From: Cetorhinus maximus
Taxonomy: Eukaryota
Direction: 5' to 3'
Length of the DNA: 64,000 bases
Assembly (NCBI RefSeq): GCF_964194155.1
Contig: NC_135890.1
Coordinates: forward strand, 109,058,001 to 109,122,000
Part shown: piece after piece, positions 4,580-59,639 of the stretch
Layout of the letters: every line of letters begins with the position of its first letter
Numbering within the stretch: the first letter of the stretch is position 1
Translations under genes and position numbers: made by a program
The notes under the pieces: model-generated
Database searches by the model: none
Seen by the model: only the letters and a program-made list of their open reading frames with translations
Told to the model about the DNA's origin: nothing

Positions 4580-4775
4580 ATAAAAACAAAAAATGCTGGA
4601 ATTACTCAGCAGGTCAGGCAGCATTTGTGGAGAGAGAAACAGTTACGTTTCAGGTCGATGACCTTTAATCATCAGCCTTAAATGTTGCATCTGTTTTTCA
4701 CTGCAGAGATCAGACCTGCTGAGTTAATTCCACCGTTTTTTAAAATTTGATTTTCAGCATCCATAGTTCTTTGCT
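4580..4775. mobile_element. Older fold-back Penelope pLTR derivative (different subfamily)
   Basis: ACTCAGCAGGTC...GACCTGCTGAGT inverted arms; stem II variant AGGTC-ATC-GACCT-GAAAC on the minus strand at ~4640-4665. Confidence 0.7.
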
Positions 4776-6877
4776 GTAACGTTATCAGACAACTACATTA
4801 AAAAGGGAAATTGCAGGCCTTTCTTTTCTTCAGTTTGGAAATGTGAGCTGTGTGTAGGATGAGTAATCCTTTGCAGGTGGAACAATGATGGCGTGTGGTC
4901 AGGTTTATTGGTGGTGGAACGGAGTAATTAATTGTTGGGTTGCTTTGTATGTAAAATACAAGTTTTTTGTGCAAATAGCATGGACTTGTGAGCATGAATA
5001 CCAATATTAATTTATTTTACAATTCATGACGACAAGCATCAGTAACAAAATCAAAGCAGGGCAAAATAAATTTCAGAAAACATGGAGAGCACTGGGAAAG
5101 TACTTTAAGGCCAAGACAAGATTTTAATGAAGAGCTAATTATTTATCACATCTCAGTATCACAGAGCTGCAGAACTTGAGGCAAAGCATCTTTTAACAGA
5201 TTTTTGAAACAGAGCTGCAGAGGGCAGTGACTTGGCTACTATTTATTTATTTAGGACAGCAGGAACCCCAGGGCCCATGAGCAGTGCTAAAAAAAGAAAT
5301 TTATGCTGCACATTGGTACAAGCAAAAATGCAAACAACTTTCTTTTTTTTAAAAACTAAAAATTTTGGCCATAGCAGCATTGAAAATACATGTAAGTGGA
5401 ATTGTTTGCAAGGGATGCTTGAGTTTTGACAACAGAGTCAAGATTGAGCCTTGAGGGGTGTTACAGTACCATCATACATATTACCAGCATTATCTGTTAG
5501 TTATTCACAGCAAGCATTCTCTTCACATCTGTCTGATAACCTCATTGCCCCTGCAGCCCCAGTTTGGGAACTTGAAACGTATTTTGATCTGCAGTGGTTG
5601 CAAAATTTCATTCAGTATCTATCCAGCTAATTTGACTGGCCAATATAAACAATTTTCAGTAGAAAAAAAATTAGATTTTTTTTTCCAAAATAGCATCTAA
5701 TCGTTGAATAATTTTGGAACTTTACAACATCTGTGAGGATCAAATTCAGGAATCCGACTGCTTAACCTGATGTCTTATTTATCTTGTTGGGTTGTCTCAA
5801 AGTGAGAGCATCATGACAGGAAATTCTAATGTAAAGAACGAGCTGTAAGTGCCATCAGAACCACCTGAAATTTCCTTAGGAAGTAATTTCCCCAACTGTT
5901 TCCTATGGCAAAGAACTGGCTGCCACCAGCCACAGTTTGCAAAAAAAAAAAATCTATCATGATTGTGGTTGCTGACAAGTAGAACTCTTTGGGAAGAACC
6001 CAATCAGAATGACAGCTGTAGAATAGCTTGCAGTGATTGTACATGCAATACAGTGGCAACTGGTGCAGCAGAAACAGTTCTATAGTATAAAAAGGGCATA
6101 CATCTCCCAAACAGGGATAATGAATCATAAAAATACACCAAAGCTATAATGGGCATTAGCAGACAATTCCATGCAACACAAATTTTAAGGGACCCCTTTT
6201 GATCTCTGTTCTTAATATAATTAATTGATATGAGCAGAGACTGTGATTAATCAAGTTGGCGATATTCAGCAAGGCAGAGCTTCAAAGAAGAACATAAAAC
6301 TTGGCATTTTCTGCAGTATTGATAACTATTGATATATGTTCTTGTCTCAGTGTCATTTTAGAAAAGGTTATTTTTCTGGTAAATAATTCAATGTATAGTT
6401 TTTATTTCATCACTTATTAAATGTTAATCCTGCTTGTGCAATTGCATTGCAATTAGATTCCCAATTTAAGCACCAGCCCAGAAAGTGTATAGACTAATTT
6501 CAAGCAGTCATTCAACACAGAAATCCTTCTACAGCCAAGATTAAAAACGAACTCAATGCAATAATTCAAATAGGGATTTGTGGATGAATGATTGCTGCCA
6601 GGCCTTAAACCTACGATCAAAGATACCAAGCAAATTTTATAATCAATGGGCCACAATGTACAGTGTCTGAGGCCTCAACTAATATCTGTCCTGCTGGAGA
6701 CAGCCTATTCCATTAGCAAGTTAAAGCCTTGCATTGCCTTTGGTGAATTCTAGTTTGTTTGATATCGATCGTTTCAGTATGCAAGGCAATTCTGTTAATT
6801 AGAACAGCCAATATTTTAACACTTTCCCAAGTAAACAACATTTTAATAGTCAGAAATCTAGGAATGTTAACTATTTA

Positions 6878-10844: not shown

Positions 10845-12576
10845 AAACCATTCCTGAATGATGGGGGAGCCCAGCACAACAGTTCAAAAGACAAGGCTGA
10901 AGCATTTGCAACCATCTTCGGCTAGAAGTTCTGGGTGGATGATCCATCGTGGCCTCCTCCTGAGGGCCCCAGGATCATAGATGCCAATCTTCAGCCAATT
11001 CGATTCACTCCATGTGAATTTTTTTTATTCATTCATGGGATGTGAGCATCACTGGCAACAACAGCATTTATTGCCCACCCCTAATTGCCCTTGAGAAGAA
11101 TGCTGCAAAGGCCATGGTCCCTGATAACATGCTGGCAATAGTTTTGAAGACTTGTGCTCTAGAAGTAGCCACACCCATAGCCAAACTATTCCATTACAGC
11201 TACAACATTGACATCTATTTAGCAAGTGGAAAAATGCCCAGGCATGTCCTGTCCACAAAAAGGAAGACAAATCCAACCCATAGATCAGTCTACTCCCGAT
11301 TATCAGCAAACTGATGGAAGGTGCCATTGACACAGTGCTATCAAGCGACACTTACACGGCAATAACCTGCTCACTGACCCTAAGTTTGGTTCCACCAGGG
11401 CCACTCAGCTCCTGACCTTATTGCTGCCTTAGTCCATGGACAAAAGAGCTGAACTCATGAGGTGAGGTGATAGTGATTGCCCTTAACATAAGGCAGCATT
11501 TGACCAAGTGTGGCATCAAGGAGCACTAGCAAAACTGGAGTCAATGGGAATCAGGGGGGACGGGGACTCCTGGTTGGAGTCATAGCCTTGCACAAAGGAA
11601 GATGGTTGTAGTTGTTGAAGGTCAACCATCTCAGACCCAGGATATCAGTGCAGGAGTTCCTCAGGTCCGTGTCCTAGGGCCAACTATCCTCAGCTGCTTC
11701 ATCAATGACCTTCCCTCCATCGTAAGGTCAGGAGTTCAGCACCACTCGTGACTCCTCAGATACTGAAGTTCTCTGTGTCCATATGCAGCAAGACCTGGAC
11801 AACATTCAGGCTTGATAAGTGGCATGTAATATTTGCATCACACAAGTGCCAGGCAATGACCATCCTCAACAATAGAGAATCCAACCATGTTCTCTTGACG
11901 TTCAGTGGCATTACCATTGCTGAAACACCCATTTTCAACATCCTGGGGGGGTTACCATTGACCAGAAACGGAAATGGACCAGCTATATAAATACTGTGGC
12001 TACAAGAGCCAGGGAATTCTGTGGAGAGTAACTCACCTCTTGATACCCCAGAGCCTAGTTTACAAGGCACAAGTCAGGAATGTAATGGAATACTCTGCAC
12101 TTGCCTGGATGAGTGCAGCTTCAACCATACTCAAGAAGCTTGATACCATCCAGGCCAAAGCAGCCTGCTTGATTGGCACTCCAGCCACCACCTTCAACAT
12201 CCACTCCCTCCATTACCAATGCACAGTGACAGAAGTGTGGACCATCCATAAGATGCACTGCAGCAACTCACCAAGGCTCCTTAGACAGCACCTTCCAAAC
12301 CCAGGACCTCTACCATCTAGAAGGACAAGGGCAGCAGATGCATGGGCACACCGCCACCTGCACATTCCCCTCCAAGCCACACACCATCCTGACTTGGAAT
12401 TGTAACTATAACAAAATCTTGGAACTCCATAACAACACTGTGGGTGTACCTAAACCACATGGACTGCAGCAGTTCAAGATGGTGGCTCACCATCATCTTC
12501 TCAAGGGCAATTAGGGATGGGCAATAAATGCTGGCCAAGGCAGTGATGACCACATCCCATGAATGAATAAAAAAAA
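10845..12576 (+). mobile_element. CR1/L2-group LINE (second family), decayed RT plus 3' end
   Basis: KDKAEAFA, AAFDQVWH, GVPQ..VLGP and YKAQVRNVMEYS motifs; 3' end CCCATGAATGAATAAAAAAA shared with many copies in the window. Confidence 0.85.
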
Positions 12577-12586
12577 TCTGGTGGTA

Positions 12587-13895
12587 CAGGTACATTGTCT
12601 CAAATCTGGCTGTCCAAAAACCAAGCATTTTTATAATGTGCCATGAATCAATTTTAATTGAGTAAACTAAAATTAAAACTTAGATAAAAGCAAAAAACTG
12701 CAGATGCTGGAAATCCAAAACAAAAACAAAAATACCTGGAAAAACTCAGGTCTGACAGCATCTGCGGAGAGTAATACAGTTAACATTTCGAGTCTGTATG
12801 ACTCTTCAACAGAACTAAGGAAAAATAGAAAAGTGGTGAAATATAAGCTGGTTTAAGGGGGGGATGGGACAGGTAGAGCTGGATAGAGGGCCAGTGATAG
12901 GTGGAGATAACCAAAAGATGTTATAGACAAAAGAACAAAAAGTTGTTGAAGATGGTGATGATATTATCTAAGGAATGTGATAATAAAGATACAGATAGCC
13001 CTAGTGGGGGTGGGGTGGGGGGAAGGGATCGAAATAGCCTAAAAGGCAGAGATATAACAATGGATGGAAATACATTTAAAAATAATGGAAATAGGTGAGA
13101 AAAGAAAAATCTATATAAATTATTGGAAAAAAGGGGGATAGGAAAGGGGGTGGGGATGAAGGAGAGAGTTCATGAGTTTCTTTTCCCACCTATTTCCATT
13201 ATTTTTAAATGTATTTACATCCATTGTTTTATCTCTGCCTTTTAGCCTATTTCGATCCCTTCCCCCCACCCCACCAGGGCTATCTGTACCTTTATTATCA
13301 CATTCCTTAGATAATATCACCACCTTCAACACCTCTTTGTCCTTTTGTCTATGACATCTTTTGGTTATCTCCACCTATCACTGGCCCTCTATCCAGCTCT
13401 AAAACAAAAACAGAATTACCTGGAAAAACTCAGCAGGTCTGGCAGCATCGGTGGAGAAGAAGAGTCGACATTTCGGGTCCACACGACCCTTCAACAGAAC
13501 CAGCTATCCAGCTCTACCTGTCCCACCACCCCCCCCTTAAACCAGCTTATATTTCACCTCTTTTCTATTTTTCCTTAGTTCTGTTGAAGAGTCATACGGA
13601 CTCGAAACGTTAACTGTGTTCCTCTCCGCAGATGCTGTCAGACCTGCTGAGTTTTTTCAGGTATTTTTGTTTTTGTTTTAAAAATAAAACTTACCTGGAC
13701 AATTCGGCTAGGTGCTGCATTGATAAGGTGTGGTGCTGGAGTAGCCTCACTCTGCGCTCTGAGTGATCCTTGACCCCACCCGACCCAGTTTGACCTGAAC
13801 AGCCCACGGCCCAAATCACCCAACCTGAAATCTGGCAAGATCCGAAATCCAGCACGGTCTCGATCCTGAGGTTGCCAGTTTTGAGACTATACCTG
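12587..13895. mobile_element. Tigger/pogo-like non-autonomous DNA transposon hosting the Penelope fold-back insertion
   Basis: TIRs CAGGTACATTGTCTCAAATCTGGC (12587) and CAGGTATAGTCTCAAAACTGGC (reverse complement ending at 13895); TA on the left. Confidence 0.6.
12683..13679. mobile_element. Large fold-back Penelope 3'-region insertion containing a second nested pLTR fragment (13402-13503)
   Basis: 12683-13171 and 13172-13679 are inverted copies of the 3' region of the 54371-58219 element; TSD AAAA(T/A)TAAAACTTA-like 14-mer at 12669-12682 and 13680-13693 (1 mismatch). Confidence 0.9.
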
Positions 13896-15654: not shown

Positions 15655-15800
15655 AAAAGCAAAATACTGTGGATGCTGGAAATCCAAAATAAGAACAGAA
15701 AATAACTGGAAAAACTCAGCAGGTCTGACAGCATCTGTGGAGAGAGGAGAGTCATACTGTCAGACCTGCTGAGTTTTTCCAGCATTTTCTGTTTTTATTA
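15655..15800. mobile_element. Short fold-back Penelope pLTR derivative about 40 bp downstream of a TMEM248-like exon donor
   Basis: CTGGAAAAACTCAGCAGGTCTGACAG ... CTGTCAGACCTGCTGAGTTTTTCCAG inverted arms. Confidence 0.85.
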
Positions 15801-16000: not shown

Positions 16001-16344
16001 CTGACAAACAAAAGATGAAAATAAATAAATAAAAAAGGTCATCAACAACAATGAACATCAAAGCATGAACATATTTTGGGTTTTACTACTCCAGATACCA
16101 AGCTGCTAAAATGACGACTGATATAAAAACTACGATAAGTATATCACTCAAGAGTCCAAAATTACCATTGAAGAATTATTTATTTGTAAAATACTGTAAG
16201 TAATTGTTACATGCAGTAACAGTTTATACCATCTGTGGTTATTACAGGCAACCATCAATACTGGCCAATTAATTCTACCCTTTGTCATTCTCATAGATGT
16301 CAATTACAAAGGTGCGTTTATCCCATATTAAGTGCTCCTGTTTT

Positions 16345-16990
16345 TTTTAAAAATTCATTCGAGGGATGTGGGTTTTGCTGGCTGGGTCAGCATTTATTGC
16401 CCATCCCTAATTGCCCTTGAGAAGGTGGTGGTGAGCTGCCTTCTTGAACTACTGCAGTCCATGTGGGTAGGTACACTCACAGTGCTGTTAGAGAGGGAGT
16501 TCCACGATTTTGACCCAGCAACAGTGAAGGAACGGCGAAATATTTCCAAGTCAGGATGATGGGTGACTTGGAGAGGAACTTCCAGGTGGTGGTGTTCCCA
16601 GCTATCTGCTGTCCTTGTCCTTCTAGATGGTAGTGGTCATGGGTTTGGAAGGTGCTGTCAAAGGAGCCTTGGTGAATTCCTGCAATGTATCTTGTAGATG
16701 GTGCACACTGCTGCTACTGTGCATCAGTGGTGGAGGGCGTGAATGTTTGTGGATGTGGAACCAATCAAGTGGCCTATTTGTCCTGGATGGTGTCAAGCTT
16801 CTTGAGTGTTGTGGGAGCTGCACTCATCCAGACAAGTGAGGAGTATTCCATCACACTCCAGACTTGTGCCTTACAGATGGTGGACAGGCTTTGGGGAGTC
16901 AGGAGGTGGGTTACCCGTCACACAATTCCTAGTCTCTGACCTTCTCTTGTAGCCACAGTATTTATATGGCTAGTCCAGTTCAGTTTCTGA
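16345..16990 (-). mobile_element. CR1/L2-group LINE 3' fragment (same family as 10845-12576)
   Basis: Reverse complement of the 3' part of that family; further pieces at 17255-17790, 18810-19135, 58780-59070 and 59450-59590 (-) and 48065-48150 (+). Confidence 0.85.
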
Positions 16991-18293
16991 GCAGACTCAG
17001 CTATTAATCAGCAGTTTGCATCACATTAAGGTGTGATTACCTCGGCTACTTAATCCCTTGTCAGGTTAAAACATGTGCTAATCAGCACTGATGGCTGTTG
17101 TCAATATGACTGGAAAAAGGAAATTAATAAACCTCAGCACGGACATGGACCTTATAAACAACATGATGGCGCTGCTGAGGGTAAGCTAGGAACTTAGTAC
17201 AGGGCTTCACTCTAAAATCTACAGTTACAAATTTATAGACACACTGAATAGCTGACTTCTTTGGCCTAGATGATGTTGAACTTCTTGAGTGTTGTTCCAT
17301 CACACTCCTGACTTGTGCTTGGTAGATGGTGGCGTCAGAAGGAGATACGCTGCAGAATTTCCAATATCTGACCTGCTATTGTAGTCACAGAATTTATGTG
17401 GTTGGTCCAGTTAAGTTTCTGGTCAATGGTGACCCCCAGGATATTGATGATGAGGTTGATAATGCCATTGAATGTCAAAAGGAGATGATTAGGTTCTCTC
17501 TTGTTGGAAATGGTCATTCTTGCCACACAAGTGCCAGGCAATGTTACTCTCCACTTATCAGCCCAAGTCTTGCTTCAAAATCTGATAATAGCAAATGGAA
17601 CTTAGCAGTGGGCAATCATCAGCAAACATCCTCCATTTATGACATTGTGATGGAGAGAAGACATTGATGAAGCAGCTGAAGATGGTTAGACCTAGGACAC
17701 TACCCTGAGGAACTCCTGCAGCAATGTTTTGGGGCTGAGATGATTAGCCTTCAAAAACCACAACCATCTTGCTTTATAATAGGTATGACTCCAGTCAACC
17801 ATAGAGAGCAGCAGCGCCAAGCTCAATCCATTCTTCCTCATACATCAGACAAATTGCCATCTACCTATAACCACCTCTACCATCGCAGTCATTCATGCTG
17901 CTCTATATTGTTCCTCAACTACAACTTCACTGTCATCATCTAATCCCCTGGCTGTATCAAATTAACTCTTGTTCTCTTGTCTACTCATCCCTCTCTAAGA
18001 GGTATCAGGGTTTGCAATAATGGAAAATGCCCCCTGTTTAAATAAAAGGAGGATCCATTTATGACAGATATTCAAAAATTGGTTGCATTTCTAACGTAAA
18101 ATAACTGATTGGCCATCCAACTATAGGTTTGCTTCCCTTCCGGCTATCATAAATTGCTCAGCTTTGAACTAATAATTACTTTGTCTGTTAAAAAGAATGA
18201 GATTAAGGTTTCTGGGCAAAAAAGATTAGGAATCTCCAGATTTCTGACTCAACCCAAAAACAAACAGAACCCCTTGGTTCATTTTTCACTGAC

Positions 18294-24519: not shown

Positions 24520-25762
24520 AGTTGATGAAAGGTATGAAAGGCCAGGGCCACTCAGCTCCTGATCTTATTACAGCCTTGGTTCAAACATGGACAAAAGAGC
24601 TGAACTCCCAAGGTGAGGCAAGAGTGACTGCCCATGACATCAAGGCAGTATTTGACCGAGTGTGGCATCAAGGAGCCCTAGCAAAACTGGAGTCAATGGG
24701 AATCAGGGGGAAAACTCTCCACTGGTTGGAGTCATGTTTAGCACAAAGGAAGATGGTTGTGGTTGTTGGTAGTCAGTCAATCATCTCAGTCCTGGGACAT
24801 CGCTGCAGGAGTTCCTAGGCCCAACCATCTTCAGCTGCTTCCTCAATGACCTTCCCTCCATCATAAGATCAGAAGTGGGGATGTTCCAGATGATTGCATT
24901 ATGTTCAGCACCATTCACGGACTGTTTCAGTATCTGAGGAGTCATGTCCAAATGCAGCAAGGCCTAGACAATATCCCGGCTTGGGCTGATTGGTGGCAAG
25001 TAACATTTACGCCACACAAGTGCCAGGCAATCACCATCTCCAACAAGAGAAAATCTCACCATCACCCGTTGACATTCAATGGCATTACAATCGCTGAAAC
25101 CCCACTATCAACATCCTGGGGGCTTACCATTGACCAGAAACTGGACTGGACCAGCCATATAAATTCTGTGGCTACCAGAGCAGATCAAAGGCTGGGAATT
25201 CTGTGGAATTCTCATCTCCTGACTCCCCAAAGCCTGTCCACCATCTACAAGGCACAAGTCAGGAGTGTGATGGAAGATTCTGCACTTGCCTGGATGGGTG
25301 AAGCGCCAACAACATTCAAGAAGCTTGACACCATCCAGAACAAAGCAAAACACTTGATTGGCACCCCACCCACCACCTCCACCACTGATGCACAGTGCTA
25401 GCAGTATGTACCATCTATAAGATGCACTGTAGCAACTCATCAAGGTCCTTCAACAGCACCTTCCAAACCCATGAACCCTTTCACCGAGAAGGACAAGGGC
25501 ACTGGATGCATGGGAACACCACCAGCTGCAAGTTCCCCTCCAAGTCACACACCACCCTGACATGGAACTACATCACTGTTCCTTCACTATGACTGGATCA
25601 AAATCCTGGAACTGCCTTCCTAAAAGTAGCGTGGGTGTTTCTACAACATGGACTGCAGTGGTTCAAGAAGGCAGCACACCAACTTCTCAAGGGCAATGAG
25701 GGATGTGCAATAAATGCTGGCTGAGCCAATACCACCTACACCCCATGAATGAATTAAAAAAA
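24520..25762 (+). mobile_element. CR1/L2-group LINE, RT to 3' end
   Basis: DIKAVFDRVWHQG and YKAQVRSVME motifs; same 3' terminus as 10845-12576. Confidence 0.88.
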
Positions 25763-26079
25763 ACATGGTTTGAGATGGTTAACTCTCCAATTTTTCTTTC
25801 CTCTACAAGGAGAAACAGATGATCTCTGCAAAGCCTATAGTAGCATGGCTAAGATCAGTAAGTCATTGAGTAGAAAATAAGTTATACCTGGCATTTCCTC
25901 CCATCTCACTAACAGTGTGTCGAAATTCAAATACACAACTACATTTCTGTTTTATTATATAATTGCAGCAAAAGGCATCCTTTAGTTTAAAATCAAAACA
26001 CTCCGGATGCTGGAAATCTGAAACAAAAATAAAAATAGCTGGAAAAACTCAGGTCTGACAGCATCTGCGGAGGGGAAAA

Positions 26080-26120
26080 CAGTTAACGTTTCGAGTCCGT
26101 ATGACTCTTCATCAGAACTG
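26080..26120 (-). ncRNA. Minimal type I hammerhead ribozyme motif (mirror copy)
   Basis: Exact reverse complement of 26207-26247; lies on the transcribed strand of the host genes. Confidence 0.8.
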
Positions 26121-26206
26121 AGGAAATATAGAAATGAGGTGAAATATAAGCTGGTTGTCCCACCCCCCTCAACCAGCTTATGTTTCACCTCATTTCTATA
26201 TTTCCT

Positions 26207-26247
26207 CAGTTCTGATGAAGAGTCATACGGACTCGAAACGTTAACTG
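26207..26247 (+). ncRNA. Minimal type I hammerhead ribozyme motif
   Basis: CAGTT-CTGATGA-A-GAGTC-ATACG-GACTC-GAAA-CG-TT-AACTG: helix I CAGUU/AACUG, intact CUGAUGA and GAAA boxes, 5-bp helix II, palindromic ACGU in place of helix III, GUU cleavage triplet. Confidence 0.8.
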
Positions 26248-26767
26248 TTTTCCCCTCCGCAGATGCTGTCAGACCTGCTGATATTTTCCAGCTATTTTTA
26301 TTTTTGTTTCAGGCATCCTTTAGTGTTCGCCATATTCCTTGTTCACAGTCAACTGGGTGTCTCAGTGACTTGGCCCTTGAGGTCTACAGTGAAACTAGCT
26401 AGAAGACATCAGTGTTTTCCCAGTGGAAAAATGCCTGGACATCACTTACTCTTATCAACATGTACTTACACATCAGTTTAACCATTGTAAATACGCCCAG
26501 GGTGTTTCAAAAAGTAGCAGTCAGGCTTAACAAGGAGTAGTAAGGGTTGGCTGAGATGGCTGAAGACCTGGTCAGAAATCAGACTCATCATATCCACAAT
26601 ATTTTGGTTATTGGTGTGGTAATATACTGCCAATGTGGTTCTACAATCTTACTCCACCTTATTTCTAATTCTTTATGGATGACATTTATACAGCTCCACC
26701 CAATCCCATTTAAGGCTGCATCTCTGCAAGGTTTTACAGTATCACATGCAGTGAACGACTAAAGATG

Positions 26768-31870: not shown

Positions 31871-34800
31871 AATAAGGCAAAACATAACATAGGGGCACAA
31901 AATATTACTGAACTCTAAAGTATAGCTGTGCTTAAGGTTGATAACCTACTTGCCATAAAGACCCTAGGAACTTCAAATTCAAATTATACCAGATGCTTCA
32001 GTCAAGTGAGAAACATTTTCCAATCCATATCTATTTCAAGATTTGATCCCTGAAAGGGAAAATACTAATCTTCTGTCCTTTCCAGTTCCCATATAGTTTT
32101 TTTTAAGTAAGGGTTTACCTGTGGCATAGTTTGGAGCGCAGTTTAAATTGTTAGATGCTAACCAGGCTACTTCACAGTCACTCCATGTGGGAACAAGTGA
32201 TGTTAATTGGCTCCAAGGTCAATTAAAGGTTAATTATTGTGGAGGTTTCTGCAGATTGGTAACTACTTGCTACCCCTCATTTTGATTTTAACAACTTCAT
32301 TGGGATCTCGAGGCCATAATAAAAGAGGAAACACTAAGGTTACTTACTCTTTAAGCCATTTTAAGATTGCATCATCATCATTGGTCCTTCAATTTTGAAG
32401 ACAGCCAGAATATAATTTTTTGCAGCAAGTCCTTTGCTGACTTAAGAGATCTGTTTTTGCTTGGAATAGGCATCCATAGATTGAATAGTGGATTCTGGAT
32501 ATACCGGATTGGGAATCTTGATTTTTCAAGTGAGACTTCTTCAACTGGCCTTCACATTCAGCATCAGCAATATGACAAACTTCATTGCAGCAAGTGCCTT
32601 CATGAATGATTTATTTTGTGCTGTGCTTTCTTTTCTTAAGCATGTTGTTCCACTTATGAGTGTCTATTTTGCACTATCACAGAGATTTTGATTAGTTTTT
32701 ATATCTCTTTTGCTGAACACCACAAACGTCACTTCCCAGTTCTCAATACACCATGAAAAATAATTTTCGGGCTTTGCTTATCAGGCAGTCACATAATCAG
32801 CTCAGACGTTGCAAATGTCTGATGAATGAAAGATTGTATTAAACACATCACAACTGTGACAGACGACAAGGCAGATAGAAAAAGTTGTATCAATTGATGA
32901 TCTTAAGCAAAGGTAACAGAGGCAAATGACTGGAATAATTTTATCCGTTACGTTTCCTTCTCTAATTCTCCTCTGACTTTCTCAATTTAGCCACAGCTAC
33001 TCTTAAAATCCCAGGGCAATGCTTCTAAAGCGCCCATTCTTCATGTGAAAACCTGGACAGTGAGCACTGATGAACAATTCCACTGCAAGCAACCACAACC
33101 AGGCCAGCCTACCTAATGTGCACATGGGTGCACTTTACAGCAAGATCATAGGCTCGTGATCTAGCGCAGAGAATCCTGGATTGGGGTTTTGGAAATCATT
33201 TTTGGCTGATTAACTTATTCCTGATCAAACTCACACCATATAACAGCTAATCTATGGAATTTGTCTTAATTGTTATCATATATAGTATGTTTTACATGCA
33301 CTTTATTCTCTTAATTTAGTACAGAGCAGAATAATCTGATCACAATAAACCAGGTGTAGACTTATACTGGTTTGCTTCTATTGTGATACATTTAGTGAGA
33401 TACACCCTACTAACACAACTGTTCTGCTCCTGTTTCTAGTTAACAAAGTGTCCAAATGAAATCAAATTTTGTGCCAAACTACTTGGAGCTTCAGGTGACA
33501 TGAAATATTTATTCCATTAATTCCCAATTTACAATAGAAATTAGATACACAAAATTCAAGTCAAGGGTAGGAAATTAACAGGAAAACCTGTATGATTTGA
33601 AGCGAGTATCACCAGGGCAACTCTTTCAATAAAATCACTCACTAACAGCCACATCATGCCCAATGTTGCAACCAGATCCCCTCCTGTCCAAATTCAAACA
33701 TGACTAGAGATTTTGGCTCAACCAGAAATGGGATGGAAAATGCACACCTAGGACCTCGGTGTCAGGAATGAGGAGGAAGCTACAGGCAACACTGGCAGAA
33801 CTACGTAACTTGGAGATCCAGTTGGGAGGTCTGAGGTTAGCAACCAAGTGAATCCAATTGGAAAACCTCAATCCAAGGTAAACTGAATCATGCACAGAAG
33901 CATGACAGAACAGCTTGATAAATGGGCATGGATATAGCTCGAAAGGAAGCAGTAATAGTCATTTGATACAAATAAAATATATCCAGCTGTAATTTCCATC
34001 CTAATTCCAACATTACATTTCATGCCTTTTTTGACATTGATCAACTCAAATTTCATATTCAAAAAGATCATGGGCAATTTTCCTTTCAACTATGTTAAAG
34101 GTGAACATATTAAACCTTTATTAAGTTGATATTATGCTCTTTTATTTCTTAAAACTCAAAGCTCATTCATGTTTTCCAAACTTTATTGAACTGAGTCACA
34201 AAACTCCTTCTCAAAGCTACAATGATAGAACATACTAGCAGGCAAAACTTAACAGAACAATGGGCTCCCTTTAAAGAGAAGATGGTGCAGGTACATTTTC
34301 ACAAGGGGCAAAGGTAGGACAAACAAAGCCAGAGCTCCATGGATGACAAAAGAGATAGAGGGTAACATGGAGCAGAAAAAGTGTGTATAATAGATGTCAG
34401 CTTGATAATACACGTGAGAACCAGGATGAATATAGAAGCTCAGTGGGAAAGTGAAAAAAGTAATGAGAAGCAAAGCAAGAACATGAAAAGAGACTGGCAG
34501 CTAACATACAAGGGAATCCAAAAGTCTTCTTCAGGCATATAAATAGTAAAAGGGTAGTAAAAAGAGGGACTGGGCCACTTGTGGACCAAAAAAGAAATTC
34601 AAGTATAGAGGCTTGGCTGAGGTACTAATTTACTACTTTGCATTTGCCTTACCAAGAAAGAAGATGCCCAAGTCATAGAGAAAAGGAGGTATTTGAGATA
34701 CTAGATGGGCTAAAAATTGTTAGAGTAGGCATTAGAAAGGCTGACTGTACTTAAAATTTACAAGCCACCAGGACCAGATCAGATACATCCTAGGATATTG

Positions 34801-34965: not shown

Positions 34966-37900
34966 TAGAAACATAGAAAATAGGAGCAGGAGTAGGCCAT
35001 TCGGCCCTTCGAGCCTGCTCCGCCATTCATTATGATCATGGCTGATCATCCAACTCAATAGCCTGCTCCTGCTTTCTCCCCATATCCTTTGATCCCTTTT
35101 GCCCCAAGAGCTATATCTAACTCCTTCTTGAAAACATACAATGTTTTGGCCTCAACTACTTTCTGTGGTAGCGAATTCCACAGGCTCACCACTCTCTGGG
35201 TGAAGAAATTTCTCCTCATCTCAGTCCTAAATGGTCTACCCCATATCCTCAGACTGTGACCCCTAGTTCTGGACTCCCCCACCATCGGGGACATCCTTCC
35301 TGCATCTACCCTGTCTAGTCCTGTTAGAATTTTATAGGTTTCCATGAGATCCCCCCTCATTCTTCTGAACTCCAGCGAATATAATCCTAACTGACTCAAT
35401 CTCTCCTTATATGTCAGTCTTGCCATCGCAGGAATCAGTCAGGTAATCCTTCGCTGCACTCCCTCTATAGCAAGAACATCCTTCCTCAGATAAGGAGATC
35501 AAAACTGCACACAATATTCCAAGTGTGGTCTCACCAAGGCCCTGTATAATTGCAGCAAGACTCCCTGCTCCTGTACTCGAATCCTCTTGCTATGAAGGCC
35601 AACATACCATTTGCCTTCTTTACCACCTGCATGCTTACCTTCAACGACTGGTGTACGAGGTCACCCAGGTCTCGTTGCACATTCCCCTCTCTCAATTTAT
35701 AGCCATTCAGATAATAATCTGCCTTCCTGTTTTTACTACCAAAGTGGATAACCTCACATTTATCTGCATTATACTGCATCTGCCATGCATTTGCCCACTC
35801 ACTCAACTTGTCCAAATCACACTGAAGCATCTCTGCATTCTCCTCACAGCTCACCCTCCCACCCAGCTTTGTGTCATCTGCAAATTTAGAAATATTACAT
35901 TAAGTTCCCTCATCTAAGTCATTAATATATATTGTGAATAGCTGGGGTCCCAGCACCGATCCCTGTGGTACTCCACTAGTCACTGCCTGCCATTCGGAAA
36001 AAGACCCGTTTATTCCTACTCTTTGTTTCCTGTCTGCCAATTAGTTTTCTATCCATACACTACGCCAAATCCCATGCGCTTTAATTTTACTCGTCAATCT
36101 CTTATGTGGGACTTTGTTGAAAGCCTTCTGAAAGTCCAAATAAACCACATCCACTGGCTCCCCCTCATCAACTCTACTAGTTACATCCTTGAAAAATTCC
36201 AGTAGATTTGTCAAGCATGATTTCCCTTTTGTAAATCCATGCTGACTCTGTCCGGTTCTGCCAGTGTTTTCCAAGTGCTCAGCTATTAAATCTTTTATAA
36301 TGGACTCTAGAATTTTCCCCACGACCGATGTCAGGCTGACTGGTCTATAATTCCCTGTTTTCTCTCTATCTCCCTTTTTAAATAGTGGGGTCACATTAGC
36401 TACCCTCCAATCTGTAGGAACTGTTCCAGAGTCTAAAGAATCTCAGAAGATGACCACCAATGCATCCACTATTTCTAGGGCCACTTCCTTAAGTACTCTG
36501 GCATGTAGATTATCAGGCCCTGGGGATTTATCGGCTTTCAATTCCATCAATTTCTCCAACACCATTTCCCTGCTAATATTGATTTCTTTCAGTTCCTCCC
36601 TCTCACTAAACCCTGTGTTCCCCAACATTTCTGGTATGTTATTTGTGTCCTTCTTTGTGAAGACAGAACCAAAGTATGTATTTAGCTGGTCGACCATTTC
36701 TTTGTTCCCCATTATAAATTTCCCTGTTTCAGATTGTAAGGGACCTACATTTGTCTTCACCAATCTTTTTCTCTTTACATACCAATAGAAACTTTTACAG
36801 TCAGTTTTTATGTTCCCTGCAAGCTTACTCTCACACTCTATTTTCCCCTTCTTAATCAATCCCTTGGTCCTCTTTTGCTGAATTCTAAACTGCTCCCAAT
36901 CCTCAGGCCTGTTGTCTTCTCTGGCCAATTTGTATGTCTCTTCCTTGGATCTAATACTGTCTCTAATTTCCTTTGTAAGCCATGGTTTGGCCACCTTTCC
37001 TGTTTTACTTTTGCACCGGACAGAAATAAACAATTGTTGCAGTTCACCCATGCGCTCTTTGAACATTTGCCATTGCCTATCCACCGTCATCCCTTTAAAT
37101 AACGTTTCCTGATCCATCATAGCCAAACTCACGTCTCATACCATCGTAGTTTCTTTTATTAAGATTCAGGACCCTAGTCTCAGAATCAACTATGTCACTC
37201 TCCATCTTGATGAACAATTCTATCATATTATGGTCGCTCATCCCCCCAAGGGGCCTCACACAACAGATTGCCAATTATTCCTTTCTCATTACACAATACC
37301 CAGTCTAGGATGGTCTGTTCTCTAGTTGGTTCCTCAACGTATTGGTCCAGAAAACCATACCGTATACACTCCAGGAATTCCTGCTCTACGGTGTCGTTAC
37401 TAATTTGATTTGCCCAATCTATATGCAGATTAAAGTCACCCATAATTACAGATGTTCCTTTATTGCATGCGTCTCTAATTTCCTGTTTGCCATTCCCAAC
37501 ATCACCACTACAGTTTGGGGGTCTATATACAAACCCCAATAACGTTTTTTGCCCCTTAGTGTTTCTCAGCTCTACCCATACAGATTCCACATCGTCAGAG
37601 CTAATATCTTTCCTCACTATTGTGTTAATTTCCTTTTTAACCAGTAATGCAACTCCATCGCCTTTTCCTTTTTGTCTGTCATTCCTAAATACTGAATACC
37701 CCTGGATGTTCAGTTCCCATCCCTGGTCATCCTGCAGCCATGTCTCTGTCATCCCGACTATATCATACCTATTTACATCTTTTTGCACGATTAATTCATC
37801 CACTTTATTGCAAATGTTCCTCGCGTTAAGGCACAAAGCCTTAAGGCTTTTCTTTTTAACATTACTTGTCCCGTTCCCACTATTTTTCACTGAGGCCCTG

Positions 37901-39350
37901 TTTGATTCTTGCCCTTGATTTCTCTGCCTATCACTTTTATAATTCTCCTGTCTTTTGTTCTTGTCTTTGATTCCCCCAGCTCTGACCCCTTGCATAGGTT
38001 CCCATCCCCCTGCCATTTTAGTTTAAACCCTCCCCAACTACTCTAGCAAATATTCCCCCGGGACATTAGTCCCGGTCCTGACCAGGTGTAACCTGTCCAG
38101 TTTGTACTGGTCCCAATGTCCCAGGAATCTGAATCCGTCCCCTCATACCATCTCTTCAGCCACGTATGCATCCGATATATCCTGCTATTTCTACTCTGAC
38201 TAGCACGTGGCACTGGTAGTAATCCTGAGGTCACTACCTTTGAGGTTCTACTTTTCACCTTACTTCCTAACTCCCTATATTCTGCTTTTAGGACCTCATC
38301 CCTTTTTTTACCTATGTCGTTTGTACCAATGAATACCACGACCACTGGCTGTTCACCCTCACCCTTCAGAATGTCCTGTAGCCGCTCTGAGACATCCTTG
38401 ACCCTAGTGCTAGGGAGGCAATATACCATCCTGGAGTCTCGTTTGCAGCCACAGAAATGCCTATCTATTCTCCTTACAATTGAATCCCTTATAAGTATTG
38501 CATTCCCACACTTTTTACTCCTCCCTTGTGCAGCAGAGCCAACTGTGGTGCAATGAATTTGGCTGTTGCTGCTTTCCCCTGAGAGGCCAATCCCCTCCAA
38601 CAGTATCCAAAGCGGTATATCTGTTTTGCAGGGGAATAGTCACAGGAGATTCCTGCACTGCCTGCCAAGTCCTCTTGCTCTGCCTGGTGGTCACCCATTC
38701 CCTTCCTGCCTGTGGACTCTTCACCTGCAGTGTGACCACCTCTCTATATGTGTTATCCACGATACTCTCCACCTCGCAGATGCTCCACAGTGTCCCCAGC
38801 TGCTGCTCCAGCTCCGAAACCCAGGCTTCCAGGAGCTGCAGCTGGAGCCACTTCCCGCCCACACGCTGGCCTCGGGTTCTGGAAATGCTCCCGGCTTCCC
38901 ATATAGAGCAGGAGGAGCACACCACGCCTTTGAGCTCCCCTACCATGACTTACCCCTTTAAATTAAATTAAACCTTTTGGAAGATACCTAATATCAAATA
39001 ATATCAATTACTCTAGGGCCCTTGTTCCCTGCTCCTCGTTGTTACAGAATATAGCCCTTACAAACGATGAACCACAAAATAAGACCTTAAAAATTATAAG
39101 CGATAAAAGTATTAAATACTTACCCGACCATATTCATGGTACTCAAAGGATCACCTCGTTCCCTCCTCACCTCCTCCCTCAGTCACCAAACTCCAACTGC
39201 AGCCCAGAGCAGCACACCAGTGCAGAAAAAGTCAGCACTGTAAGATGGCCTGTTTTTATACTCTTTGAATCTAGCCTCTGAAAACCTGTTTAAGCCAATT
39301 ATCTAATTAACTAGTTGTAGCTGCAAGCAGAGCCTGCATAAACCCTGTTA
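34966..39350 (-). mobile_element. Near full-length younger CR1 LINE: ORF1 (Zn-finger + SGNH esterase) and ORF2 (APE endonuclease + RT), frameshifted
   Basis: ORF1 pieces 38515-38946 (CSSCSIWE) and 38043-38600 (DSIVR, VVVFIGTND); APE 37228-38016 (NARNI.NK, GMTETW, YRPP, MGDFN); RT 36041-36394 (YLDFQKAFNKVPH); TTCTATGT-type tail at 34966-34980. Confidence 0.93.
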
Positions 39351-39660: not shown

Positions 39661-39883
39661 AGAACAAAAACTAAAATACCTGGAAAAACTCAGCAGCTTT
39701 GACAGCATCTGCGGAGAGGAACACAGTTAACACATCGAGTCCTTATGACTCTTCATCATTCATTCAGACGCGAAGCGTTAACTGTGTTCCTCTCCGCAGA
39801 TGCTGTCAGACCTGCTGAGTTTTTCCAGGTATTTTTGTTTTTGTTCTAGATTTCCAGCATCCGCAGTATTTTGTTTTTATCTT
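39661..39883. mobile_element. Fold-back Penelope pLTR insertion nested in CR1
   Basis: Inverted arms; 14-bp TSD AGTG(G/A)TGAATGGCT at 39647-39660 and 39884-39897. Confidence 0.9.
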
Positions 39884-44760: not shown

Positions 44761-45020
44761 CAACAAAAACAAAAATAGCTGGAAAAACTCAGGTCTGGCA
44801 GCATCTATGGAGAGGAATACAGTTAACGCTTCGAATCCATATGACTTCATCAGAACTAAAGAAATATAGAAAATATTTTCTATATTTCCTTAGTTCTAAT
44901 GAAGTCAGACAGACTTGAAACGTTAACTGTATTCCTCTCCGCAGATGCTGTCAGACCTGCTGAGTTTTTCCAGCTATTTGTTTCAGATTTCCAGCATTCG
45001 CAGTATTTTGGTTTTATCTT
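44761..45020. mobile_element. Fold-back Penelope pLTR insertion downstream of RPL6
   Basis: Inverted arms; perfect 14-bp TSD AATGCTGTCACCTA at 44747-44760 and 45021-45034. Confidence 0.92.
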
Positions 45021-54333: not shown

Positions 54334-54869
54334 CACAACCTTTAAAGGGATACTTATTGGAGTTAACCAAAACAAAAACAAAAATACCTGGAAAAACTCA
54401 GCAGGTCTGGCAGCATCATTCAAGTCCGAATGACCCTTCAACAGAACTAAGTAAAAATAGAAGAGACGTGAAATATAAGCTGGTTTGGGGGGGGCGCCAA
54501 GTAGAGCTGGATCCAGCATCCGCAGTAGTTTTTTGTTTTTATATTAGAGCTGGATAGAAGACCAGTGATAGGAAGAGATAACCAAAAGATGTCACAGACA
54601 AGAGGACAAAGAGGTGTTGAAGGTGGTGATATTATCTGAGGAATGTGCTAATTAAGGGTAGAAAGCAGGATGAGCAAGGTACAGATAGCCCTAGTGGGGG
54701 TGGGATGGGGTGAAGGAATCAAAAAAGGCTAAAAGGTAGAGATAAAATAATGGATGGAAATACATTTTGAAATAATGGAAGTAGGTGAGAAAAGAAAAAT
54801 CTATATAAATTATTGCAAAAAAAATGGTGGGGGGGGTATCGGAAAGGAAGTGGGGATGGAGGAGAGAGT

Positions 54870-55371
54870 TCATGATCTAAAATTGTTGAACTCTATATTC
54901 AGTCCGGAAGGCTGTAAAGTGCCTATTTGGAAGATGAGGTGCTGTTCCTCCAGTTTGCATTGAGCTTTACTGGAGCAATGCAGCAAGCCAAAGACGGACA
55001 TGTGGGCTTGAGAGCAGGGTGGAGTGTTGAAATGGCAAGCGACAGGGAGGTCTGGGTAATGCTTGTGGACAGACCGAAGGTGTTCTGCAAAGCGATCACC
55101 CAGTCTGCGTTTGGTCTCTCCAATGTAGAGGAAACCGCATTGGGAGCAACAAATGCAGTAGCCTAAATTGAGGGAAGTGCAAGTGAAATGCTGCTTCACT
55201 TGAAAGGAGTGTTTGGGCCCTTGGACGGTGAGGAGAGGGGAAGTAAAGGGGCAGGTGTTGCACCTTCTGCGGTTGCATGGGAAGGTGCTGTGGGAGGGGG
55301 TTGAGGTGTAGGGGGTGATGGAGGAGTGGACCAGGGTGTCCCGGAGGGAACGATCCCTGTGGAATGCCACC
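54870..55371 (-). CDS. GIY-YIG endonuclease domain with Cys-rich linker (frameshifted relative to the RT)
   Basis: AFHRDRSLRD.LVHS, CNRRRCNTC, NLGYCICCSQCGFLYIGETKRRLGDRFAEH, VACHFN...H, GTLQPSGLN. Confidence 0.92.
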
Positions 55372-57646
55372 GGGGGGGCGAAGGGAAGATGTGTTTGGTG
55401 GTGGCATCATGCTGGAGTAGGCGGAAATGGCGGAGGATGATCCTTTGAATGCGGAGGCTGGTGGGGTGATAAGTGAGGACAAGGGGGACCCTATCATGTT
55501 TCTGGGAGGGAGAAGAAGGTGTGAGGGTGGATGTGCGGGAGATAGGCCGGACACGGTTAAAGGCCCTGTCAACAACCGTGGGTGGAAAACCTCGGTTAAG
55601 GAAGAAGGAGGACATGTCAGAGGAACTGTTTTTGAAAGTGGCATCATCAGAACAGATGCGACGGAGGCGAAGGAACTGAAAGAATGGGATGGAGTCCTTA
55701 CAGGAAGCTGGGTGTGAGGAGCTGTAGTCGAGGTAGCTGTGGGAGTCGGTAGGCTTGTAATGGATATTGGTGGACAGTCTATCACCAGAAATTGAGACAA
55801 AGTGGTCAAGGAAGGGAAGGGAAGTGTCAGAGATGGACCATGTGAAAATGATGGAGGGGTGGAAATTGGAAGCAAAATTAATAAATTTTTCCAGGTCCAG
55901 ATGAGAGCATGAAGCAGCACCGAAGTAATCATCGATGTACCGGAGAAAGAGTTGTGGAAGGGGGCTGGAGTAGGACCGGAACAAGGAATGTTCCACATAC
56001 CCCATAAAGAGACAGGCAGAGCTGGGGCCCATGCAGGTACCCATAGCCACACCTTTTATTTGGAGGAAGTGAGATGAGTTTAAGGAGAAATTGTTCAGTG
56101 TGAGAACAAGTTCAGCCAGACGGAGGAGAGTAGTGGTGGATGGGGATTGTTCGGGCCTCTGTTCGAGGAAGAAGCGGAGAGCCATCAGACCATCCTGGTG
56201 GGGGATGGAGGTGTAGAGGGATTGGACGTCCATGGTGAAGAGGAGGCGGTTGGGGCCAGGGAACTGGAAATTGTTGATATGATGTAGGGTGTCAGAGGAA
56301 TCACGGATGTAGGTGGGAAGGGACTGGACAAGGGGAGAGAAAATGGAGTCAAGATAACAAGAAATGAGTTCCATGGGGCAGGAACAGGCTGACACGATCG
56401 GTCTGCCGAGACAGTCCTGTTTGTGGATTTTGGGTAGGAGGTAGAAGCGGGCCGTCCGAGGTTGGGAGACTATCAAGTTGGAAGCTGTGGAAGGAAGATC
56501 TCCAGAGGAGATGAGGTCAGTAACAGTCCTGGAAATAATGGCCTGATGTTCAGTGGTGGGGTCATGGTCCAGGGGGAGGTAGGAGGAAGTGTCTGCAAGT
56601 TGATGCTCAGCCTCTGCGAGGTAGAGGTCAGTGCGCCAGACAACAACAGCACCACCCTCGTCAGCGGGTTTGATGACAATGTCAGGGTCGGACCTGAGAG
56701 AACGGAATGCAGCAAGTTCAGAGAGAGACAGATTAGAGTGGGTGAGAGGAGCAGAGAAATTGAGACGACTAATGTCATGCCGACAGTTCTCAATGAAAAG
56801 ATCAAGAGAAGGTAAGAATCCAGAGGGAGGGGTCCAGATGGAGGGAGAATGTTGAAGGTGGGTAAAAGGATCCGTTGAACGGGGAGAGGACTCCTGCCCA
56901 AAGAAGTGAGCACAGAGACGAAGGCGGCAGAAGAAGAGTTCAGAATTGTGCCGAGCCCGAAATTCATTGAGATGAGGGCGTAAGGGTATGAAACTAAGTC
57001 CTTTGCTGAGCACTGAATGTTCAGCGTCGGAGAGGGGAAGGTCAGGGGGTATGGTGAATACACGGCCAGGGCTGGGATTGGAAGACGGGATGGGGACAGA
57101 GGGACAGGCAGGGGTGGAGGGTCCTGGATGGGTGTTGGTGTCAATGAGTTGTTGGAGCTTGCGTTCCTTTGCACCTGAAAGAAAGAGACAAAGTTTCTTG
57201 TTGAGGCGTCGGATGAGACGAAGAATAAAATGAAACTGGGGGCATGCGCAGCTTTGAAAAAGGGTGTGGCGGTGCTGCTGGAGGGAGAGGTCGAGTGTGT
57301 TCATATGGCGGCGCATGGCACTGAGTGTGGATCTCAGAATGCGACGAGAACAGCAGTCCGAGGAGCGTTGTATGTCCCTGAGATACCTGTAATCCTGGGT
57401 GGGTTCGAAACATGAGGGATGGAACTTCAGTTGAAATCCACATGGGGTAAGTCGGAGACGGAGACAGTCACTGAGGAAGGAAATATGGCTGTGAAAGCGA
57501 GTTTTAGTAAACACCTTTTCAAACATCGGTAGAGAAATGGAAAGCAATGAAGGTGAACAAGGCAAAAGAGAGATACGAAAATCCTGACGGAGAGAAGAGC
57601 AATACTTCTTCAAGGTAGGCATTCCTTGAAGAGAAGTGGCAGTCAA
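55372..57646 (-). CDS. Penelope-like reverse transcriptase (N-terminal part of the RT-GIY-YIG polyprotein)
   Basis: Uninterrupted ORF with IKPAD.GGAVVVW, FYLLPKIHK, GRPIVS, FTMDVQSLYTSI, GVAMG, FLRYIDD, LPFLD, YKPTDSHSYL. Confidence 0.93.
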
Positions 57647-58082
57647 TTAAACACTAAGATAAAAGCAAAAAACTGCAGATGTTGGAAATCCAAAACAAAA
57701 ATAAAATATCAGCAGGTCTGGCAGCATCTGCGGAGAGAAGCACAGTTAACGTTTCGCGTCTGAATGGTCCTTCAACAGAACTAAGTAAAAATAGAGGTGA
57801 AATATAAGCTGGTTTAAGGCGGTTTGGGACAAGTAGAGCTGGATAGAGGGCCAGTGATAGGTGGAGATAACCAAAAGATGTCACAGATGTACCTTGCTTG
57901 TCCTGCTTTCTACCCTTAATTAGCACATTCCTCAGATAATATCACCACCTTCAACAACTCTTTGTCCTTTTGTCTGTGACATCTTTTGGTTATCTCCACC
58001 TATCACTGGCCCTCTATCCAGCTCTACTTGTCCCACCCCCACTTAAACCAGCTTATATTTCATGTCTCTTCTATTTTTACTT

Positions 58083-58121
58083 AGTTCTGTTGAAGGGTCA
58101 TTCGGACTCGAAACGTTAACT
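58083..58121 (+). ncRNA. Minimal hammerhead motif (CUGUUGA variant) in the inverted pLTR; same variant at 13577-13615 (+) and 57745-57783 (-)
   Basis: AGTT-CTGTTGA-A-GGGTC-ATTCG-GACTC-GAAA-CG-TT-AACT. Confidence 0.7.
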
Positions 58122-59639
58122 GTGCTCCTCTCCGCAGATGCTGCCAGACCTGCTGAGTTTTTCCAGGTATTTTTGTTTTTGTTTTGGATTTCCAGCATCC
58201 GCAGTTTTTTGCTTTTATCTTGGAGTTAACCAAGCCTCACAACACATTTCAATATGATCTCTCTTAGTTTTCTTTAAGTCAATCCAAAACGAATTTAATT
58301 AAGAACTTTTATTGATTAATTTCTAGCTTCCAAATTAATATATAAATTTAATAGTAATACATGATGGGTTCTTGCTCTTGAGACACTATCCTTTTAATTC
58401 TGGGACCAAATGTGTGAATCCAGTCCAGATTAATCACACTGAACAACTTGCCTGCTAAAGTCAAAGTCACTCTCGTTCCTGTTGAACATAGGCTCCGAGA
58501 AAAATTCCCTTAATTATGCAGCCTGCCTCAAGAAGATCATAATATGACTTTTATGAGAAAAAGATGCAATACCAGTGCACCCTGTATTCCAATTAAGGCA
58601 CAATGTTGGGGACTTTTACCCCACATTCAATTTTTCCATGTTTGACCTGGCAATGCCTAATGCTGACAGTGGATTCCCAAATTGGGAACTAGTATGAGGT
58701 GAGTTTGTGCAGGAAGTCTTGCACCTGATTAGCTTTCGTACATTGTGAAGTCAAAAGAAACATGGAAGCAGAGTTACGCTTTTTAAAATTCATTTACGGG
58801 ATATGGGCATCGCTGGCTAGGCCAGCATTTATTACCCATCCCTAATTGCCCTTGAGAAGGTGGTGGTGAGCTGTCTTCTTGAACCGCTGCAGTCCCTGTG
58901 GTGTAGGTACACCCACAGTGCTGTTAAGGAGGGAGTTCAGGATTTTGCCCCAATGGCAGTGAAGGAACGGTAATATATTTCCAAGATAGGATGGTGCGTG
59001 GCTTGGAGGGGAACTTCCAGGTGATGGTGTTCCCATGTATCTGCTGCCCTTGTCCTTCTAGACGGTAGATCCTTCTAGATGTACTAACTTACATTCTCAT
59101 CAATGAACACCAAAATCACTTTTCATACCATCTGCCCAGTCTACACATATTGTTTTTTAATACATCACTTATTTTCTTTCTACTTTTGATTTTAGGTCTA
59201 CATCCTCAGTATTGTGTTTCTCACTTCTTTCATGCATGTTCACAGTGTGGTTAACAATATGGCACTACAACTGATCTTAGTGCCTTTTGGAAATGGAGGA
59301 AAATCATAATTCAATTATCTCTATTGGTTGTCAGGTGAGGATTGGACTAGGTTCACCTGAGATAATTGTTTTTGTAGGCCTTGGCACATTGACCTGGCAA
59401 AAACCAATGGTAGTTGTCTTCTTGGATCTGGATCAGCAGAGAAAAAGATTTTTAAAAATTCATTCATGGGATTTGGACACTGCTGCCAGGCCGTATTTAT
59501 TGCCCATCCCTAATTACCCTTGGGAAGGGTGATGAGTTGTCATCTTGAATCACTGCAATCTTTTGCTGTAAGTACACTTACAACACTGTTACCTCCATAA
59601 AGATGCCTGTGACTACCATACAGCATAGGACTAACACTA

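Follow-up and report, generated by a model that had tools for sequence, protein, structure and literature searches.

Fold-Back Inserts of a Penelope-like Element in Cetorhinus maximus: One Tailed Arm, a Symmetric Cut-Site Preference, and a Possible Twin-Priming Origin

Introduction

How does a stretch of DNA that encodes nothing come to consist of two copies of one retroelement end, placed head to head within a single target-site duplication (TSD)? The question is raised by an insert at positions 25973–26324 of the window, the 64,000-nucleotide stretch of Cetorhinus maximus DNA analyzed here (NC_135890.1, 109,058,001–109,122,000), whose numbering is used throughout. MITEs are short, non-coding elements that have inverted repeats and occur in many copies. 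The head-to-head layout has already been described for Penelope-like elements (PLEs) and is a known kind of Penelope insertion (PMC3846280, PMC8557442; here and below, papers are cited for the accessible portions of their text). The EN+ PLE unit comprises a pLTR with an adjacent inverted 5'-truncated copy, a one-sided tail of 30–40 bp, and a TSD; in the accessible text of the same two papers the tail is called only "optional" or "often one-sided", and the origin of the inverted repeats and the tail is called undefined in PMC8557442. The later steps of PLE integration are left unvalidated in the accessible portions of an in vitro study (PMC11167929).

Results

Structure of the Insert at 25973–26324

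The insert is framed by a 14-bp duplication, AGGCATCCTTTAGT, at 25973–25986 and 26311–26324 (both on the plus strand), and two head-to-head arms of the pLTR end lie between these copies; the flank letters that follow the right copy, GTTCG, agree with the cut-site motif described below. The left arm (25987–26157, minus strand) is a 3' pLTR copy that stops at the far, tail-bearing site, here called L, with its tail at about 25987–26020 and its hammerhead core at 26109–26115. The right arm (26156–26310, plus strand) is a pLTR copy that stops at the near, short site, here called S, and has no tail. The arms are unequal at both ends: the L arm ends ~36 nt further 3' than the S arm, this difference being the tail, and the right arm extends ~14 nt deeper into the pLTR than the left one, its additional 5' letters forming the hairpin loop (26158–26170, plus strand). 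The insert folds into a single long hairpin (z −40, with 0 of 100 shuffles equally stable), and its longest ATG frame is 23 aa, in line with the preliminary description, which had called such inserts ORF-less.

Some further features of this locus were recorded. Between 26021–26158 and 26171–26310 the arms differ by 3 substitutions and one 3-nt gap, and 93 consecutive letters are identical. The insert is common to a related organism, whose flank differs at 12 of 510 positions; given the near-identical arms despite the diverged flank, arm-to-arm conversion is possible. The right ends of this insert and of that at 44761 are present in DNA runs of a related organism, and an empty allele for either was not seen in the repeat-swamped contigs of four DNA runs and the related-organism runs. 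Elsewhere, at 32284–32303, contigs of related organism A carry a 20-bp tandem duplication that the window does not have.

Other Inserts in the Window and the Parent Element

Seven inserts of the window had been described as two inverted arms and nothing else, and this holds for six of them. The exception, a long fold-back at 12683–13678 (L left, S right), contains a nested third arm (13401–13503, minus strand), which is single, S-ended, of another subfamily, and framed by its own 12-bp duplication (13389/13504); its 5' end coincides with the pile-up position of arm 5' ends treated below. Duplications of 14 bp, claimed for four of the inserts and the full element, were found at 25987, at 39661–39883 (S left, L right; 39647/39884, 1 mismatch), at 44761–45020 (S left, L right; 44747/45021), and around the full element, while the A-rich one of the 12683 insert measures 15 nt with 1 mismatch (12668/13679). 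The remaining three inserts are two-armed, but their repeats are short: 9 bp (2270/2497) at 2273–2494 (the 2279 insert; S left, L right), 10 bp (4564/4791) in the old fold-back at 4580–4783 (S left, degenerate L right), and 7 bp, with no clear duplication, in the very short fold-back at 15655–15799 (L left, S right), where both arms lack the core.

The arms match end pieces of the Penelope-like element in the window, so the origin first proposed for them stands. This full element has the same frame as the hairpins: a 3.5-kb S-ended arm (54371–57887, minus strand; 3' pLTR, coding region, and 5' pLTR) meets a 0.33-kb inverted L-ended arm (57887–58219, plus strand) within a 14-bp duplication at 54357–54370 and 58220–58233. 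The pLTR copies before and after the ORF lie at 54371–54875 and 57653–57887, and the adjacent inverted 5'-truncated copy is present, as in EN+ PLEs. Its frames, GIY-YIG at 54870–55406 and RT at 55196–57646 (minus strand), are separated by a frameshift. In Pfam, the RT frame matches RVT_1 (E = 5e-5) and the endonuclease frame GIY-YIG (E = 0.004), each below the database's cut-off; at E ≤ 1e-30 the element has 1,254 relatives, many with RT and GIY-YIG together, and the closest named proteins are from bamboo shark (66%) and devil ray (72%). A CX4CxxC linker (CNRRRCNTC) precedes the endonuclease. Since a CX2-5CxxC linker between RT and EN defines the Neptune/Nematis clade (PMC8557442), this motif marks the element as a probable Neptune/Nematis-type PLE; a Poseidon label, considered as well, was set aside in view of the same motif.

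The window also holds a single L arm at 1327–1483, within an older repeat (365–1780) that recurs at 34970–36250. Other retroelement remains (36443–38639, 24542–25765, 11395–12576, and 16339–17793) include GDSL-like esterase and APE-type endonuclease frames and a second repeated LINE-like 3' region; we take the esterase and endonuclease remains to be CR1/L2-like. A possible 5' UTR intron lies at 57627–57711 (minus strand), and its pattern has 662 matches genome-wide. Its putative signals are a donor-like CCAG/GTA in the pLTR, a branch-like TTGAC/TTCAC, and an acceptor-like TCTTC(C/A)AG two letters upstream of the first ATG; the window copy is without the donor, and the GT is absent from some subfamilies. 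Both RT start sites would lie inside this putative intron, a position that could be relevant to intron retention.

Abundance of Fold-Backs

We searched the 4.0-Gb genome with a symmetric pattern of two exact 17-nt motifs facing outward. The 10,577 matches (1,660 with an inner gap of 50–80 nt, 3,248 at 81–110 nt, 4,397 at 111–140 nt, 884 at 141–170 nt, and 388 at 200–230 nt) cover these five gap classes, and one composite may count twice; reversed-pattern controls gave 0. Position-picked DNA (98 evenly spaced 10-kb stretches, 980 kb) contains 12 fold-backs, which extrapolates to ~49,000 genome-wide (Poisson range 25,000–85,000), and 2 lie in the 200 kb adjoining the window. The window is enriched in fold-backs relative to position-picked and neighboring DNA; one insert per 9 kb, as given earlier, is correct for the window and about nine times too high for the genome. 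The family as a whole has one arm per 12 kb. Single arms outnumber fold-backs (72 of 100 arms in 1.18 Mb of position-picked and neighboring DNA), and most of the short single arms (49 of 60) are without a duplication of at least 8 bp. Two fold-backs 13 kb apart (G000 C1:75506176 and C1:75519056) have an identical printed inner sequence and, judged from it, are probably a local duplication.

The counts that follow come mainly from 100 motif-picked inserts, the first matches on one chromosome, a choice in which the ends were not a criterion and young subfamilies are favored.

One Tail per Insert

The S ends lie mostly 19–25 nt and the L ends mostly 53–72 nt past the motif. One L and one S end were called automatically in 97 of the 100 motif-picked inserts, and none was two-tailed; the remaining three are an L + S insert with a worn tail, an insert with a partial tail, and a three-arm composite. 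Genome-wide, motif plus tail matches 3,386 times and the two-tail pattern 16 times, where independent arms would lead one to expect 652; tail-to-tail pairs are absent from 1.24 Mb. Five of the 16 two-tailed matches (G000 C5:116003605, C7:39256367, C12:3113669, C12:81417254, and C12:88728922) come from a single subfamily, whose motif is changed and which carries an extra AAAAC; this subfamily may relax the one-tail rule. There is also a minor third start site: seven S arms, at the motif-picked loci L197, L199, L205, L206, L294, and L295, end 2–3 nt past the motif, ~20 nt short of where S arms usually end.

Cut Site and Duplication Length

The empty site was rebuilt from the flanks and each nicked strand was read separately; the motif and microhomology tests use 77 inserts, 23 without a 13–16 bp duplication being left out. 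We found that both ends show the same preference, W/GYYNGNT (the slash marks the cut), with two-fold symmetry, and that 111 of 118 half-sites have a pyrimidine at position +3. A profile built from one end gives the opposite end higher scores than flank controls (p = 3e-18 and 8e-21), and the cut-site profile does so for 31 further loci as well (p = 1e-20); only position +1 is open to bias from how the duplication edges are defined. This is a weak motif, and several window copies agree with it at one end only. Two like half-sites in inverted order suggest a complex of two-fold symmetry that contains two endonuclease domains. The match between primer and template is 1.49 nt at L and 1.27 nt at S, compared with null values of 0.66 and 0.77 that include chance extension (n = 77). 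In literature search listings and the papers cited here, we found nothing on the symmetric motif or the stagger and no tally of one-tailed inserts.

Among the 100 motif-picked inserts, the duplication is 14 bp in 45, 15 bp in 15, 13 bp in 14, and 12 bp in 7, so that 74 fall at 13–15 bp; none scoring at least 8 is present in 6. The mode of 14 bp proposed earlier is therefore borne out, and the distribution is not a broad one without a mode. Shuffled flank pairs reach a duplication of at least 12 bp in 1 of 396 cases, and a mainly BLAST-picked set has 14 bp in 27 of 79. When chance extension is allowed for, the fitted true stagger is 14 in 58–68% and 13 in 20–26%. The duplications range over 12–16 bp and the ends are unequal in 97 of 100 inserts, in contrast to the equal TIRs and short fixed TSD of MITEs. 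The 14-bp mode by itself is not rare, since L1 duplications peak at 14–16 bp (PMC2912911).

Junctions and Subfamilies

Subfamily letters agree between the two arms of one insert in 59/60 and 54/60 cases (expected 0.69 and 0.37); a clear mixed-subfamily insert is absent among these 60, with 6 differing at a 4-letter site. Rare non-CpG changes stand on both arms in 7 cases and on one arm in 59. Six of the seven both-arm changes are T>C or A>G in this small sample (L269, L288, L300, L302, L306, L315, and L333), and the arms show no ADAR-type strand bias (39 vs. 37 and 48 vs. 44).

Junctions were mapped in 97 motif-picked inserts, three non-LS inserts being left out, and no two are alike, which answers the earlier question of recurring junctions in favor of one-off products. 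Among 171 inserts, one junction, at short homology, recurs in four loci, which had been picked for likeness to the 39661 insert; their mutual identity of 0.89–0.93 compares with 0.86–0.94 to others, and they fall into two subfamilies. The best whole-length matches at other loci reach 89, 85, and 91%, and single arms reach up to 96%. Because the junctions are one-off, the sequences indicate that the hairpins are by-products, neither a self-copying family nor a MITE. The proposal of a product lineage of its own fails on the differing junctions and on the several subfamilies that produce hairpins; the statement that these inserts are not MITEs is upheld by the unequal ends, the retroelement parent, and the lack of clonal copies.

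The S arm extends further 5' in 54 of the 97 inserts and the L arm is longer in 38. In the 84 inserts left after 13 more were set aside for long unassigned inserts, the S arm is at least 8 nt longer in 29 and the L arm in 13. Direct neighbors, the tandem arrangement of retrozymes, number 2 among 125 arms, whereas the hairpin arms are inverted.

Hammerhead Motif and 5' Ends of the Arms

The right arm of the 25987 insert contains a minimal type I hammerhead motif (26207–26247, plus strand), assigned from its sequence and the features given in PMC4209133: stem I (26207–26211/26243–26247), CUGAUGA (26212–26218), an extra A, stem II (26220–26234), GAAAC, a palindromic ACGU, and a predicted cut after 26242. 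An Rfam scan returned nothing at the gathering score, the hammerhead being a minimal motif taken from the sequence. The canonical CUGANGA core occurs in at least 99 of 270 arms of a mixed sample, and at least 120 have U or C at A6; stem II pairs are retained in 92–97% of arms, with G–U pairs and some double changes. The local hammerhead fold is no better than shuffles, and in a transcript across the insert arm is predicted to pair with arm. The motif fits the minimal PLE type, with putative ribozyme activity; "ribozyme-bearing", the earlier wording, is apt for the presence of the motif and too strong for the many non-canonical cores and for a transcript in which the arms pair.

The AG at 26208–26209 is the start point of many arms elsewhere. 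Just 8 of 131 positions, at the front of stem I, account for 27 of the 85 arm 5' ends in position-picked, neighboring, and window DNA (p = 5e-13), and 38 S and 28 L arms start there in the motif-picked set (n = 97), which is partly gap-constrained. Past this front the genome counts fall five-fold, from 4,397 to 884. We infer that the simplest cause of the pile-up is the RNA 5' end, because an RT arriving there has already unwound the ribozyme; arms that run past it, including those of the 25987 insert, would derive from longer RNAs. Hammerhead cleavage as the source of the template 5' end was rejected, with only 2 of 85 arms beginning at the cut site (432–438), around which the motif-picked set has scattered single counts without a peak. 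The pile-up may also be read as a splice acceptor, which the site resembles, and a comparable acceptor is reported for the D. virilis element (PMC4209133); no recurrent upstream exon was found at the junctions, and unassigned letters number at most 8 in 45 of the 53 inserts that have an arm at this point. No cap-derived G stands out at the arm 5' ends.

Discussion

The reading that we favor, with a probability of about 0.6, is that an RT-endonuclease acts as a dimer, cutting the two target strands at matching sites and starting two cDNAs on a single RNA. Two endonuclease domains would nick opposite strands 13–14 bp apart at W/GYYNGNT-like sites, leaving two 3' overhangs. One 3' end would prime at L and the other at S, ~36 nt closer to the RNA 5' end, so that the same RNA stretch would be copied twice, with the enzyme that follows displacing the cDNA ahead of it. 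Priming in the 5' leader pLTR would run off at the RNA 5' end, the hammerhead front, giving arms of at most ~100 and 137 nt, while priming in the 3' pLTR would give longer arms, up to the full element; host end-joining would then connect both cDNA ends via short homology or filler. Two RNA-templated syntheses from opposite target strands, as the preliminary description had it, remain the best reading. Twin priming by a dimer would account for all five patterns that we recorded and agrees with the Poseidon biochemistry, although for this Neptune-type family that support would come from another clade with another cut preference. Many single arms, mostly without a clear duplication, and the longer L arm in 38 of 97 inserts speak against it. 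We give even odds to the stricter form, obligate twin priming by a two-fold symmetric dimer at ANCNRRC-W-N12-W-GYYNGNT, with 13–14 nt 3' overhangs, one RNA, and two fixed starts.

That a single RNA serves both arms fits the one-tail rule and the shared variants, and two RNAs of one source would fit as well. A double cut and double priming in which each subunit of an asymmetric complex carries its own RNA, one starting at L and the other at S, with the RNAs perhaps paired through the palindromic stem III of the hammerhead, would spare the enzyme copying one RNA twice; minimal hammerheads have been proposed to act as dimers (PMC4209133), and the symmetric target and the subfamily match are accommodated if both RNAs come from one locus. 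Yet a symmetric dimer with two RNAs predicts two tails in a quarter of inserts (16 observed vs. 652), an extra asymmetry has to be invoked, and a clear mixed-subfamily insert is lacking among 60, though 6 differ at the 4-letter site; we regard two RNAs as rather unlikely. Exactly one tail and identical arms would follow automatically if the cDNA primed at L snapped back and copied itself, halting ~36 nt short of the primer, and self-priming was earlier proposed from junction palindromes (PMC3846280). Such a copy cannot exceed its template, however, and in 54 of 97 inserts it is the S arm that extends beyond the L arm on the 5' side (by at least 8 nt in 29 vs. 13); in the full element the S arm spans 3.5 kb and the L arm 0.33 kb. 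The S-side cut motif also equals the L-side one. Even though later deletions at the hairpin center could blur the arm lengths, snap-back copying seems improbable.

Tens of thousands of similar-sized copies, and the one junction found in four loci picked for likeness to 39661, are what a non-autonomous family moving as a unit, MITE-like or retrozyme-like, might leave behind. This is very doubtful, as unequal ends, long and variable duplications, and 97 junctions with none in common count against it; furthermore, whole-length matches fall below those of single arms, and the same-junction loci are no closer kin and belong to two subfamilies. Two independent insertions, or recombination between inverted neighbors, are scarcely credible: arms are frequent (one per 12 kb) and nesting does occur (12683), but the single duplication that frames both arms in 74 of 100 inserts contradicts this origin, as do the subfamily match of the arms, the one-tail rule, and the absence of tail-to-tail pairs.

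In Adineta vaga, the Pen2a unit resembles the inserts here in its head-to-head pLTRs, its tail at one end, and one TSD around the whole (PMC3846280). Compared with Pen2a, which has 8–10 bp TSDs and, in a few copies, an optional or often one-sided tail in the accessible text (PMC3846280, PMC8557442), the units here are minimal and ORF-less, number tens of thousands, and have 13–14 bp duplications, a near-strict single tail, and a symmetric cut motif. In the case of the Poseidon element PAc of Anolis, both strands are cut and extended in vitro, as proposed here, two internal RT start sites bound the tail, a dimer is predicted, and the RNA template is uncleaved (PMC11167929). PAc differs in its clade, its ATT cut preference, and start sites that lie within the ORF, and it shows neither primer–template homology nor a strand difference in start site; the accessible text gives no stagger and no pairing of the two starts within one event (PMC11167929). 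L1 twin priming is similar in that two target ends prime one RNA with microhomologies and a TSD peak of 14–16 bp (PMC2912911); in L1 the internal site used by the second primer varies and each piece represents its own part of the RNA, whereas here the starts are fixed ~36 nt apart and both arms cover the same part.

The minimal hammerheads of PLE pLTRs share with those here a short stem I, an extra base after A9, and a palindromic stem III (PMC4209133), but most of the common subfamilies here change A6 (CUGUUGA, CUGCCGA, and CUGCUGA). Schistosoma has hammerhead pairs 100–700 bp apart on opposite strands (PMC4209133); such pairs are explained here as single insertions. Non-LTR retrozymes are likewise non-coding, hammerhead-bearing, and PLE-derived, yet they are direct tandem repeats (bioRxiv 10.64898/2026.07.22.740005, accessible portion), and the inserts here are inverted pairs with a TSD. 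From MITEs, the hairpins differ in their unequal ends, their long variable TSD, the lack of clonal copies, and their retroelement parent.

The value of these inserts lies in a quantitative record of the PLE integration step: tens of thousands of natural products set numbers for any mechanism, namely the stagger, the symmetric motif, the one-tail pairing, and the RNA 5' end. If obligate twin priming is true, a single reaction would give rise to the inverted pLTR together with tail and TSD, and the short hairpins would be strong-stop-like run-offs from the 5' leader. In flies, inverted Penelope copies give siRNAs (PMC3681739), and the hairpins in C. maximus would yield long double-stranded RNA if transcribed.
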